This document shows, piece after piece, positions 436-20,784 of a DNA stretch of 64,000 nucleotides. Position numbers and translations under genes: made by a program. Origin of the DNA: Candidatus Nanohaloarchaea archaeon (GTDB lineage Archaea > Nanohalarchaeota > Nanosalinia > Nanosalinales > Nanosalinaceae). Under the pieces are notes generated by a model. It searched no databases and was not told the DNA's origin. It saw only the letters and a list, made by a program, of their open reading frames with translations. The DNA is taken from NCBI GenBank assembly GCA_013343275.1, contig CP046106.1, positions 704,001 through 768,000 on the forward strand. Reading direction: 5' to 3'. How positions within the stretch are numbered: position 1 is the stretch's first letter; the number at the start of each line of letters is the position of its first letter.

Positions 436-1197
436 ATGAGGATTGAAAACAGCTTTATTCTCGCACCCGGAGTAGGAGAGAAGACTGAGAAGAAACTCTG
501 GAAAAAAGGAATAACACACTGGGACCATATAGAGAATACTAACGAAGTAAGCAGCCGGAAACAGGAAAAAATATCCAGCTTTGTACAGAAGGCCCGGAAA
601 AACCTTGAAGTAGAGAACTCAGTGTTCTTCCAGGAAAACCTCCCTAACAAAAGCCTCTGGAGACTTTACCGCAACTTCGAGGAAAAGGCCTGCTTCTTCG
701 ATATCGAGACCACCGGCCTCGACAAGAAAAAGAACAAGGTTACAACCGTCAGCTTCCACCGCGACGGAGATTCACGGACCTTGATACAGGGCCAGGACCT
801 GACAAAGGAAAGACTTGAGGAAGAGATGTTCGAATCAAAGATACTTGTATCGTTCAACGGAAAACGTTTCGACCAGCCGTTCCTCGAACAGAGCTTTGAC
901 ATGGATATCAACGTTCCGCATATCGATCTCATGTACCTATTCAAACGTATCGGCTACTCCGGCGGCCTGAAAAAGATCGAGAAACAGCTGGATGTTGACA
1001 GAGAGCTGGAGGATATCGATGGACGAGAAGCTGTCCGGCTCTGGAAGCAGTACGAGAATAACGGCAATCAGGAGGCACTGGATAAGCTGGTCAAGTACAA
1101 CCAGTACGATGCCAGAAACCTTGAGAGCCTTCTTGAGATAGTGCATGAGCGCTTAACGGGCGAAGTGTTTGAGCCTCACAGGCCTTCCGAACGATAG
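436..1197 (+). CDS. YprB/RNase_H_2-family DEDD 3'-5' exonuclease with N-terminal HhH-like segment
   Basis: PGVGEKTE, FFDIETTGL, VSFNGKRFDQPFL, HIDL, GGLKKIE and YNQYD motifs. Confidence 0.85.
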   Translation: MRIENSFILAPGVGEKTEKKLWKKGITHWDHIENTNEVSSRKQEKISSFVQKARKNLEVENSVFFQENLPNKSLWRLYRNFEEKACFFDIETTGLDKKKNKVTTVSFHRDGDSRTLIQGQDLTKERLEEEMFESKILVSFNGKRFDQPFLEQSFDMDINVPHIDLMYLFKRIGYSGGLKKIEKQLDVDRELEDIDGREAVRLWKQYENNGNQEALDKLVKYNQYDARNLESLLEIVHERLTGEVFEPHRPSER

Positions 1198-1199
1198 AC

Positions 1200-1221
1200 T
1201 TAAAAACGACTGATCCCAACT
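1200..1221 (+). promoter_or_regulatory. TATA-containing promoter resembling the tRNA-Ser promoter
   Basis: TTAAAAACGACTGATCCCAACT, compared with TTAAAGACTGACGATCCCAAACT at 61104-61126. Confidence 0.55.
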
Positions 1222-1233
1222 TTCAGATGAAAA

Positions 1234-1580
1234 TGGCCTTGGTACAAAATACACCGGCTCCGGAAAACATGTGGATGGATTCCGTGAGCTACTGCTATAC
1301 CCATCTGACCAGGGCCAAGGCTAAATTCTCAATTATTAACTTCCTGGCAGAGTAAAGCGGGATGAAGCCTTGGCTCCTACTGGAGTCAAGCGCCGACCGC
1401 GAATACTCAAGGCTTCTGGAAAATAGGATTCCAATTCTTCTACCTCTGTGGAACATAGGGTAGAGTTTTGGAATCGGAGGTATGCTGTGCTTGCAAGGTG
1501 CAGTGTACCTCACGGTTACCTATTCAACTTACTGACTGATCAAACACAAGTCGAACCGAAAAACACAACACGCCAGGTGA
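1234..1580 (+). ncRNA. Large structured RNA or leader of unknown family
   Basis: Stems 1234-1243/1308-1317, 1364-1372/1408-1416, 1427-1434/1468-1475, a fully paired hairpin 1477-1511 with G-U pairs, and 1343-1348/1572-1577. Confidence 0.65.
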
Positions 1581-1588
1581 CAACACCA

Positions 1589-1702
1589 ATGGACGCAAAC
1601 GCGCGGCATTTCGAAGTAGAACTTCAGGCCCAGCTTGAGGAAGAGGAAACTCAGGCACAGGTACATCCTGAAGCAAACGTCGTCGCAGTTCAAACTCTCT
1701 GA
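1589..1702 (+). CDS. 37-aa acidic micro-protein
   Basis: AGGTGA SD 8 nt before ATG, the same spacing as the histone, radA and cysD-like genes. MDANARHFEVELQAQLEEEETQAQVHPEANVVAVQTL. Confidence 0.6.
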   Translation: MDANARHFEVELQAQLEEEETQAQVHPEANVVAVQTL

Positions 1703-1719
1703 GAAAGAATAATAGAGAA

Positions 1720-1753
1720 CTTCCGCAGACCCTAGAAACCGCTCTAGCGGGAG
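1720..1753 (+). terminator. Hairpin between convergent genes
   Basis: CTAGA/TCTAG (1732-1736/1743-1747) enclosed by CTTCCGC/GCGGGAG. Confidence 0.35.
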
Positions 1754-2242
1754 CTATTCGTCTTGCTGATACGCTGCCGACTCGAATGCAGCCCAGCCAT
1801 TAGCCATAGAATCAAGTATCGAAGTAAACGAACGCGCCGGCTTCACAACCTTTCGACGGCCCTGCTTGCCCTCACGCTGGCCACGATACTCCAGGTATTC
1901 ATACTGTATAACACCAATCCTTCTCAACTTAGGCAGAATATTGTTCTTCAAGTTTGAAAGGCCTTTCTCATGACCCCATTCGCCGAAATTATTCAACTTC
2001 TCGGAGTCTATCTCTCCTTCATCCTTTAACTCGCGCAGAAATATCTTTGCGTACTTATTCCTCTTCGGAGACTGCTCCTGAGGGAAAAACAGGTCAACGA
2101 TCTTCTCCCAGTTCCATGCACGATCAGACTTCCTGTACTTCTGACTGTCGCGCGGAATAGCGATCGAGTTCTTAGTAACTATAGTAGTAGATTTACGGGC
2201 CTCTTCATCTACAAAAGGGTGCTCCTCATCATTCTCCGACAT
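1754..2242 (-). CDS. Uncharacterised protein, probable winged-helix DNA-binding fold
   Basis: NILPKLRRIGVIQY recognition-helix/wing pattern, a basic wing, and a C-terminal amphipathic helix. Confidence 0.55.
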   Translation of the reverse strand: MSENDEEHPFVDEEARKSTTIVTKNSIAIPRDSQKYRKSDRAWNWEKIVDLFFPQEQSPKRNKYAKIFLRELKDEGEIDSEKLNNFGEWGHEKGLSNLKNNILPKLRRIGVIQYEYLEYRGQREGKQGRRKVVKPARSFTSILDSMANGWAAFESAAYQQDE

Positions 2243-20633: not shown

Positions 20634-20784
20634 GCCTCGATGGCTCAGCCTGGCTAGAGCGGTCCCCTCGTACGCCTGCCAATGCCCAGAGCGGCACGCA
20701 TCAGACCATGCTCAGCATGGCCTACAATCAAACTTGACAGGCACAGAAAGGGACAGGTCCCGGGTTCAAATCCCGGTCGGGGCT
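20634..20784 (+). tRNA. tRNA-Thr(CGT) with 76-nt intron at 37/38 (20673-20748)
   Basis: Acceptor GCCTCGA/TCGGGGC, D-arm GCTC/GAGC, anticodon stem GTCCC/GGGAC, T-arm CCGGG-TTCAAAT-CCCGG; CCA not encoded. Confidence 0.93.

Follow-up and report, generated by a model that had tools for sequence, protein, structure and literature searches.

What kind of RNA, if any, is made from positions 1234 to 1580 of the sequence shown above, and what is it for? The locus lies near the start of the window, by which we mean the whole 64,000-nt stretch of nanohaloarchaeal DNA that was analysed (contig CP046106.1, positions 704,001 to 768,000), and a first reading made from the letters alone (the sequence-only reading) had proposed a large structured non-coding RNA (ncRNA). 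We put the probability at about 60% that the locus encodes a dual-function antisense RNA of one nanohaloarchaeal family that bears a kink-turn (k-turn). The proposed RNA combines a small open reading frame (ORF), ORF1, a k-turn hairpin next to its stop codon, and a hairpin, H4, that in about half of the lineages is complementary to the mRNA leader of rpoE/rpo7, the gene for an RNA polymerase stalk subunit. Comparison of genomes provides the basis of this reading: the RNA is conserved, the frame of ORF1 is under selection, the k-turn hairpin, H4 and a further hairpin, H5, covary, and the complementarity to the rpoE leader is compensatory. High expression is taken from a published study (PMC10266531). 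In what follows, G000 is the window's own genome (916 kb, a single contig), G001 and so on are its relatives, and f2 to f5 are other families. A1 is an alignment of 24 sequences of the locus and A4 one of 24 k-turn sequences; later sets hold 40 unique loci, 38 of them complete.

The segment 1198-1590 folds at -135.3 kcal/mol on the + strand, with a z-score of -5.99, and none of 100 dinucleotide shuffles is equally good; on the - strand the z-score is -3.14. The folding check that had been suggested with the sequence-only reading is therefore in its favour. When the whole window is scanned with Rfam at gathering scores, only two tRNAs are found, and when window positions 1100-1800 are scanned at E-values up to 10, the best match reaches 16.4 bits (DUF2815) and is joined by two pieces of long ncRNAs, all at chance level, in agreement with the earlier statement that no RNA family is recognisable. 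The RNAs of the signal recognition particle (SRP) and of RNase P were considered as identities and rejected, because the archaeal models match at other places in the genome and not here, as had also been supposed: RF01857 finds the SRP RNA at G000:197313-197586 (136 bits), and the best candidate for RF00373 is G000:C1:875212-875594 (- strand, locus L002; 62.8 bits, E 1.5e-17). The latter score is below the Rfam gathering score of 84, and the region is probably a divergent RNase P RNA.

The locus is conserved well beyond the genus. In a BLAST search, 1198-1600 has matches in 24 of the 41 genomes examined, G000 counted in: 22 of the 24 other genomes of the same family, one of seven in f3, and none of nine in f2, f4 and f5 together. 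A model of the k-turn matches once each in 45 of the family's 49 other genomes, in one of ten in f3 and in none of ten in f2, f4 and f5, so that 47 of 70 genomes of the order are positive. The RNA is thus a single-copy element almost confined to one nanohaloarchaeal family. The four family genomes that have neither a k-turn-model match nor the downstream gene ORF2 are 72-85% complete. Between genera, nucleotide identity of the RNA is 71-87%, compared with only 62-72% amino acid identity for the protein encoded upstream. Together with 24 aligned loci, covarying helices and the better z-score of the + strand, these figures bear out the claim of a conserved, strand-specific structured RNA; its expression is known from PMC10266531. 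The upstream gene encodes an RNase H-like exonuclease (PF13482, E 1.1e-41), and all 24 loci lie 3' of a homologue of it. The sequence-only reading had placed the RNA between an exonuclease gene and a gene for a winged-helix-turn-helix (wHTH)-like protein; the former neighbour stands, and the latter is not adjacent, since ORF2 intervenes. In one relative (locus L010, G022:C38) an extra gene on the opposite strand is inserted between the exonuclease gene and the promoter of the RNA, so that linkage to the exonuclease gene is not obligatory.

The description of the RNA as new does not hold in the strict sense. Five ncRNAs with high expression are tabulated in a 2023 study of nanohaloarchaea in culture; one of them, SVXNc_nc0001, is assigned to an "unknown family" (PMC10266531, Table S3) and belongs to the same RNA family as the present one. 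It is given there as 322 nt long, from Ca. Nanohalococcus occultus, with 39,987 reads per kilobase per million (RPKM); the values for the SRP RNA, a histone gene and the adjacent exonuclease gene are 173,757, 9,814 and 1,272, respectively, which puts the RNA, in this one data set, at about one quarter of the level of the SRP RNA. Compared by eye over 320 nt, the published sequence is the reverse complement of the copy at locus L025 of a relative, and it spans from 17 nt before the ATG of ORF1 to the Shine-Dalgarno (SD) sequence of ORF2. In the part of PMC10266531 that describes SVXNc_nc0001, neither ORF1 nor ORF2 is annotated and no k-turn or target is mentioned; the RNA is treated as organism-specific and as having "H/ACA boxes". 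In contrast, it is found here throughout a family, with its anatomy worked out by comparison. That it should be an organism-specific, ribosome-associated H/ACA-type ncRNA read from the printed strand is an account to which we give almost no credence. What speaks for it is that PMC10266531 reports strong expression and shows RNAfold drawings by its authors, but the promoter, both ORFs, the k-turn's polarity and the G.U pairs all fit the other strand, and presence in 47 of 70 genomes is not organism-specific. Neither H/ACA nor any other Rfam family matches either strand at E-values up to 10, and an H/ACA small RNA (sRNA) was also rejected on structure, as there is a 4-bp lower stem and no pocket. 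Both published labels, H/ACA and "ribosome-associated", are based on the incorrect strand. The present analysis thus revises a published ncRNA in its strand, distribution and label, and brings in two small genes that had no annotation.

Other records are sparse. RNA-library contigs from two runs of one study carry the versions of two relatives, and one contig of 350 nt spans 1242-1501 plus 92 nt beyond; such contigs give no ends, strand or level, and their depths and the uncovered positions 1594-1621 are not used as evidence. In a word search of sequencing runs, no run contained more than 0.22 of the sampled words. The literature search found the name SVXNc_nc0001 only in PMC10266531, and found, in the library searched, no archaeal antisense small RNA for Rpo7. 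A conserved 266-nt intergenic nanohaloarchaeal sRNA reported from a halite community, STRG.4577.1 (PMC7002113), may be the same RNA.

Table 1. Features of the RNA locus (window coordinates) and paired stretches of the rpoE leader
Feature	Position	Strand	Remarks
TATA-like box TTAAAAA (archaeal promoter)	1200..1206	+	33 nt 5' of ATG; conserved in alignment A1
ORF1	1233..1355	+	predicted (near-)leaderless; 40 codons, MALVQNT...FSIINFLAE, stop TAA; open in all complete copies
H1	1234..1317	+	1234-1243 with 1308-1317; joins 5' end just past AUG to codons 26-29
H2 hairpin	1256..1290	+	within ORF1, 1256-1265 with 1280-1290; from fold, RNAalifold and own-versus-foreign test
k-turn hairpin	1357..1400	+	begins 1 nt after ORF1 stop
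k-turn canonical (C) stem	1357-1360/1397-1400	+	bulge GAU, 1361-1363
k-turn G.A pairs	G1364.A1396, A1365.G1395	+	3b:3n is A1366:C1394
k-turn non-canonical (NC) stem	1367-1368/1392-1393	+	apical stem-loop 1371-1388
H4 hairpin	1426..1475	+	1436-1456 complementary to start of rpoE/rpo7 mRNA leader, G000:C1:53864-53884 (outside window)
H5 hairpin	1477..1511	+	top CUGC-UUGCAA-GGUG; strong covariation
A/C-rich linker	1512..1574	+	unpaired, poorly conserved; from fold and alignment A1
SD-like AGGTGA before ORF2	1575..1580	+	relatives: GGTG or GAGG, 6-12 nt before start
ORF2	1589..1702	+	acidic 37-residue protein MDANARHFEVELQ...VQTL; conserved, unannotated
rpoE leader paired stretch, G000			UGUUCCACAGAGGUAGAAGA
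rpoE leader paired stretch, G021			UGUCUUGUAGAGGUAGAGGAACUG
rpoE leader paired stretch, G008			UGUCCCAUAGAGGUAGAGGAAUU
rpoE leader paired stretch, G005			UGUUCCACAGGGGCAGGAGAACG

The stretch had been described as about 350 non-coding nt, and a third of it, 1233-1355, turns out to be a frame-conserved ORF. The ATG of ORF1 is invariant, and the frame is open over 35-41 codons in 24 of 24 relatives, ending at a stop codon 3 nt 5' of a conserved GGGATGA. Over the ORF1 region of these sequences, the stop codons in frames 0, 1 and 2 number 0, 54 and 67, respectively. The distance from the ATG to the k-turn anchor takes six values between 111 and 129 nt, all of them multiples of three, and the element after ORF1, which is 36-43 nt long, follows no such rule. 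A shuffled sequence of the same make-up would stay open with a chance of about 0.15. Among the 40 unique loci, ORF1 is open in 38 (stop codons TAA 27, TAG 7 and TGA 4), and the remaining two are truncated by contig ends. Since the frame is kept open and the lengths vary by multiples of three, we regard 1233-1355 as being under selection for readability. The TATA-like box lies 3' of the exonuclease stop codon in A1, and an A/T box 32-42 nt 5' of the ATG is found by pattern match in 32 of the 38 complete loci and by eye in the other six. From this distance, transcription would start near the ATG, with a leader of a few bases at most.

The bases of ORF1 carry a second constraint. Entropies at the first, second and third codon positions are 0.74, 0.80 and 0.93, compared with 0.71, 0.43 and 1.37 in the exonuclease gene and 0.86, 0.52 and 1.40 in ORF2; the three positions are almost equally fixed, and it is mainly RNA structure that constrains the bases. 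Conservation of the peptide is only moderate (consensus MALVxNTxWxTGNMxMDxVRxxYNxxKAKAxFSIINxLAE). Two helices proposed in the sequence-only reading lie within the frame. H1 recurs in 24 of 24 relatives as a duplex of at least 8 bp (-12.6 to -20.0 kcal/mol); its covariation is weak, own halves pairing at -17.7 kcal/mol versus -15.9 for foreign halves and better in 14 of 24, with partners that change to match, in some cases in a shifted register, in G018, G004, G017, G039, G012, G021 and G022. H2 is in the RNAalifold consensus, with a few double changes, and pairs at -16.8 versus -13.5 kcal/mol, better in 19 of 24. A pseudoknot GGATGG/CCATCT proposed for the same region fares less well, as CCATCT is present only in three genomes of the same genus (A1).

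A simpler account would make the transcript a plain bicistronic mRNA for the ORF1 and ORF2 proteins, with helices that merely stabilise it. Both frames are indeed conserved, and gene callers name ORF1 homologues "hypothetical protein" (17 matches, 38-43 aa). Such an mRNA leaves unexplained why third codon positions of ORF1 are nearly as fixed as the first two, why three covarying hairpins, one of them a textbook k-turn, occupy a 230-nt spacer, and why the published level exceeds that of the neighbouring gene about 30-fold (PMC10266531), and we consider it improbable. Neither ORF1 nor ORF2 matches a family in Pfam or NCBIfam.

The hairpin that follows ORF1 is a k-turn by sequence and covariation, with the strands GCGG-GAU-GA-A-GC ... 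GC-C-GA-CCGC. The sequence-only reading, in which neither the k-turn nor the match to the rpoE leader figured, had drawn here a 9-bp helix, 1364-1372/1408-1416, of which the 3' half lacks conservation and the 5' half is part of the covarying k-turn hairpin. In A4, 94.0% of 299 cells are paired, compared with 84.4% after shuffling (0 of 500 shuffles as high), and double changes occur in nine of 13 pairs; slid controls give 30-42%. In the 38-sequence set, all 228 cells of the C and NC stems are paired (slid controls, 23-47%), the C-G pair of the NC stem being replaced by U-A in nine sequences and one U-A occurring in the C stem. The tandem GA/GA is invariant (38/38), the bulge is GAU in 33 and AAU in five, the -1b:-1n pair is G:C in all 38, and 3b:3n is A:C in 20 and C:C in 11. 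According to PMC6298567, a G:C pair at -1b:-1n blocks ion-induced folding, and L7Ae folds every k-turn tested. Because of this rule, folding is expected only upon protein binding, and is thus probably protein-dependent, with L7Ae as the predicted ligand; the genome contains one gene of the L7Ae family (100 bits). A ribosome stationed on the ORF1 stop codon could presumably, from what is generally known of footprints, reach the 5' strand of the k-turn.

A box C/D sRNA was considered at this point and rejected. The likeness lies in a k-turn made from an AUGA-type and a GA-type strand and in L7Ae as the expected partner. However, the strands here are GGGAUGA[AC] and [CGU][CGU]GA, the place of the CUGA D box is taken by CCGA, CGGA or UUGA, there are no C'/D' pair and no guide spacers, and the two strands enclose a hairpin of 36-43 nt rather than guides; no C/D family of Rfam matches.

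H4 provides the antisense part of the RNA. The best non-self match of the RNA in G000 is a 21-mer identical to 1436-1456, located at G000:C1:53864-53884 (E 6.6e-5) and retained in both genus mates. This match and a gene starting 44-64 nt away are on opposite strands; the match lies 44 nt 5' of the annotated start of this minus-strand gene, which is rpoE/rpo7 (TIGR00448, 181.9 bits with a cut-off of 124.2; NF006333, 223.5 bits, above cut-off; domains SHS2_Rpb7-N and S1). Because the match is on the opposite strand, it is the mRNA leader of rpoE that would be complementary to H4. To extend this to the family, the longest contiguous complementarity (Watson-Crick and G.U pairs) between each RNA and the 140 nt upstream of its own rpoE was computed for 33 genomes. 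Runs of 18-27 bp are found in 16 of them, from at least nine genera, and start 21-50 nt 3' of the k-turn, in the H4 region. In the controls, made with the first 24 genomes, shuffled leaders give a mean run of 10.1 (maximum 16), reverse-complemented leaders 10.5 (maximum 14), and the rpoE leaders of other genera 11.0. Judged by sequence, a base-pairing region with a predicted target in trans is therefore found in 16 of the 33 genomes.

The paired sequences themselves vary among genera (Table 1), each H4 being altered to fit its own leader, and even within one genus G003 and G023 show a matched difference on both sides. In 15 of the 15 genomes counted here (G020 was set aside, its best run being at another place), the complementary stretch begins 23-33 nt past the start of a TATA-like box, where a transcript is expected to start. 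In ten genomes the target ends 0-7 nt 5' of the AUG, and so spans the whole predicted leader including GAGGU; in G000, G001, G002, G005 and G015 the leader is longer, and the target makes up its 5' end, stopping 47-71 nt short of the AUG. The locus of G020 (L021) has an H4 region of 123 nt with two separate stretches complementary to the rpoE leader, one fitting its 5' end and the other, of 19 bp, lying over the SD sequence and ending 8 nt before the AUG. In the genus of G000, the leader is about 82 nt long (L029 1431-1521, - strand, which corresponds to G000:C1:53794-53884), and its first 21 nt are the H4 site. In addition, H4 of G000 can pair through CUACCUCU with GGAGGUAG immediately 5' of the rpoE AUG.

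These data also bear on whether the match is a feature of the DNA, such as two copies of a protein-binding site or the remnant of a duplication. The position of the rpoE copy right at the promoter and the half of the family that lacks the match would suit this idea. It would not predict that copies diverged between genera keep their complementarity, that the stretch coincides with the predicted 5' untranslated region (UTR) from start site to start codon, or that it lies inside a covarying RNA hairpin. Moreover, the differences between copies are transitions that give G.U pairs in the sense transcripts (24 of 346 H4-rpoE pairs) and would give A.C if the opposite strands paired, in which case the run shortens, on average, from 21.6 to 15.9 bp. 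We therefore hold a DNA-level origin to be improbable.

H4 as a hairpin, predicted as a 49-nt element in the sequence-only reading, is present in all 24 relatives, with a mean z-score of -3.4 versus shuffles and 20 of 24 below -2. For H4 these z-scores are the evidence, since the own-versus-foreign test is biased where halves are chosen from each sequence's own fold. The loop, CUCUACACCGUGG, is conserved in lineages without the rpoE match. Searches for its targets in such lineages, made in five genomes with a 17-nt pattern and up to three mismatches, gave counts like those of the control, and in G019 a BLAST search with the H4 region in its own genome found only the region itself. Parts of the H4 sequence, 14 and 13 nt long, recur at G000:137464 and 726381 within genes for acidic proteins, and these repeats were discarded as chance.

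H5 is the best-supported helix. Double changes occur in 12 of its 14 pairs, and own halves pair at -21.7 kcal/mol versus -12.7 for foreign halves, better in 24 of 24, so that the proposed 16-bp hairpin is strongly upheld. The same is true of the argument from G-U pairs for the + strand: 109 of 336 cells are G.U, and one G.U pair is invariant in all 24. A closing helix AATAGG/CCTATT around this region, on the other hand, is gone already in the nearest relative, G001. The top given in Table 1 is found in most genomes; its loop (1490-1497) contains UUGCAA, a 6-nt palindrome (CUUGCAAG when the closing pair is included), and G021 has UUAUAA, also palindromic. Such a loop could let two RNAs kiss, but the palindrome is broken in several other genomes.

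Downstream, ORF2 (37-38 codons, consensus MDANxRxFExELxAQ...VVTATAL) is present in 24 of 24 loci, always 200-290 nt past the k-turn, and has an entropy pattern of the protein-coding type. An ORF2 profile run against 1.84 billion proteins finds 40 clusters, all of them short calls or calls over-extended through the RNA, and among these 40 there is no fused or added domain and no known family. The profile matches 47 of the 70 genomes of the order, 46 of them in common with the k-turn model; the exceptions are G048, in which a contig end truncates the locus before ORF2, and G044, which has only a weak ORF2-like match of 22.8 bits.

The leading rival explanation is built on this association. The RNA would be a purely cis-acting leader of ORF2, whose translation or stability would be governed by an upstream ORF together with a structure that depends on a protein; what is abundant would be the stable remnant of this leader, and the rpoE match would be an addition confined to certain lineages. 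We consider this unlikely, though less so than the other alternatives. The RNA and ORF2 are always adjacent and share one phyletic pattern (46 genomes with both), an unpaired A/C-rich run and an SD sequence precede ORF2, the H4 loop offers CCUCU or CACC as pairing partners for GAGG or GGUG, and the rpoE match is missing in half of the genomes. However, when anti-SD pairing was examined over 38 loci, with the H4 loop as partner of the SD sequence of ORF2 and AAGGUG of H5 as a decoy, the best partner of the SD window shifted among genomes, so that no consistent pairing emerged and the idea was dropped. In addition, the published transcript annotation ends at the SD sequence and excludes ORF2 (PMC10266531), and a cis-acting leader leaves the compensatory match, which in 16 genomes is to an unlinked gene, in need of a separate explanation.

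Several results weigh against the dual-function antisense reading. The other 17 of the 33 genomes have runs of only 7-11 bp, which is the background level, and for 12 of the unmatched genomes the mean z-score of complementarity to rpoE is +0.17. Because all 17 keep ORF1, the k-turn, H4 and H5, pairing with rpoE is not the sole or core function of the family. Most of the antisense stretch of G000 is taken up by the H4 stem (-25 kcal/mol), which has to open first. The minimum free energy structure of the G000 leader pairs the 5' element with CCUCUG..AUGGA, with a z-score of only -1.61; since the leader alone folds insignificantly, it demonstrates no switch. The codon-position pattern of ORF1 is unlike that produced by selection on amino acids, and the act of translation may matter more than the peptide, while H1, standing beside the AUG, should hinder leaderless initiation. 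A two-state switch between the k-turn and a long-range helix that joins GCCAAGGC in ORF1 (1313-1321) to GCCUUGGC of the k-turn strand (1366-1374) is possible, but this helix is 90.3% paired versus 88.7% in shuffles, and 40 of 500 shuffles reach its three double-change pairs. Finally, the published ends of SVXNc_nc0001 are apparently derived from read coverage, which is an assumption.

At the 5' end of the G000 rpoE leader stands an SD-like AGAGGUAGAAG; CCUCUG follows 55 nt on, and the genuine GGAGGUAG precedes the AUG. A decoy/anti-SD arrangement is one possible model of this leader.

We infer that ORF1 is translated, that L7Ae binds the k-turn, and that the RNA pairs with the rpoE leader in the cell with an effect on its expression. 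The antisense RNA would then act as follows. A single abundant transcript, about 320-350 nt long and reaching from near 1228 to near 1585, would start nearly at the AUG and offer ribosomes an ORF of 35-41 codons, most of whose bases would also be fixed by H1 and H2. One base past the stop codon, an L7Ae-type protein would bind and fold the k-turn hairpin, making the RNA an L7Ae ribonucleoprotein (RNP), and a terminating ribosome and the bound protein would compete for the same bases. H4 would serve, in about half of the lineages, as an antisense module of 18-27 bp for the predicted 5' UTR of rpoE/rpo7. Where the leader is short, the duplex would extend from the predicted transcript start to 0-7 nt before the start codon and bury the SD sequence, and translational repression would be the simplest outcome. 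In the genus of G000, where the site is the first 21 nt of a leader of about 82 nt, the effect could be in either direction. After H5 and the A/C-rich tail, the co-inherited 37-codon ORF2 would be read from read-through or processed transcripts. The core kept throughout the family, i.e., ORF1, the k-turn, the H4 loop and H5, must have a role beyond rpoE.

A more ambitious interpretation, which we think rather doubtful, makes the RNA a sensor that ties translation capacity to transcription capacity in a genome-reduced symbiont. Free L7Ae, as a read-out of ribosome and RNP assembly, would compete with ORF1-translating ribosomes at the stop-adjacent k-turn, and the outcome would set the fold of the antisense hairpin and through it the synthesis of RpoE and of the 37-residue protein. 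If true, this would be an RNP-based feedback without a described archaeal counterpart.

Dual-function RNAs as such are already a known kind. SgrS/SgrT and RNAIII are small RNAs that combine coding with base pairing, and the spRNAs of Methanosarcina mazei are reportedly counted among them. The present RNA resembles these in that one transcript contains a small ORF and, apart from it, a region with complementarity to the leader of another mRNA. It differs from them in that its ORF overlaps helices and starts at the 5' end, that it bears a k-turn, that its predicted target encodes an RNA polymerase subunit, and that its host is a genome-reduced symbiotic archaeon. A second point of comparison is offered by L7Ae-responsive k-turn stem-loops, which Daume is said to have described in 2017 in archaeal l7ae 5' leaders. 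The k-turns of these leaders, as described by Huang, Ashraf and Lilley in 2019 (PMC6298567), have the same GAU bulge, tandem G:A/A:G and -1b:-1n G:C, and also lie near translation signals. In contrast, the present k-turn, a predicted L7Ae site, follows a stop codon rather than flanking an SD sequence, and the RNA is far from the l7ae gene in the contig (517 kb versus 705 kb).

We know of hardly any regulatory RNAs from DPANN archaea. The locus joins three features that are rarely found together, namely a frame-conserved, predicted leaderless mini-ORF that overlaps helices, a stop-adjacent and probably protein-dependent k-turn, and an antisense arm that co-evolves with the rpoE leader. It offers a testable case of sRNA control over the archaeal transcription machinery, and the organisms are now amenable to co-culture.

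Two further observations concern the rest of the window. Positions 1754-2242 (- strand) encode the 162-residue neighbour that had been called wHTH-like, which is convergent with ORF2 and for which Pfam and NCBIfam give no significant family (best match Rpc31, E 0.054). At 20634-20784, a tRNA match (44.5 bits) extends over 151 nt against a model of 71 positions, and this tRNA probably carries a long intron.

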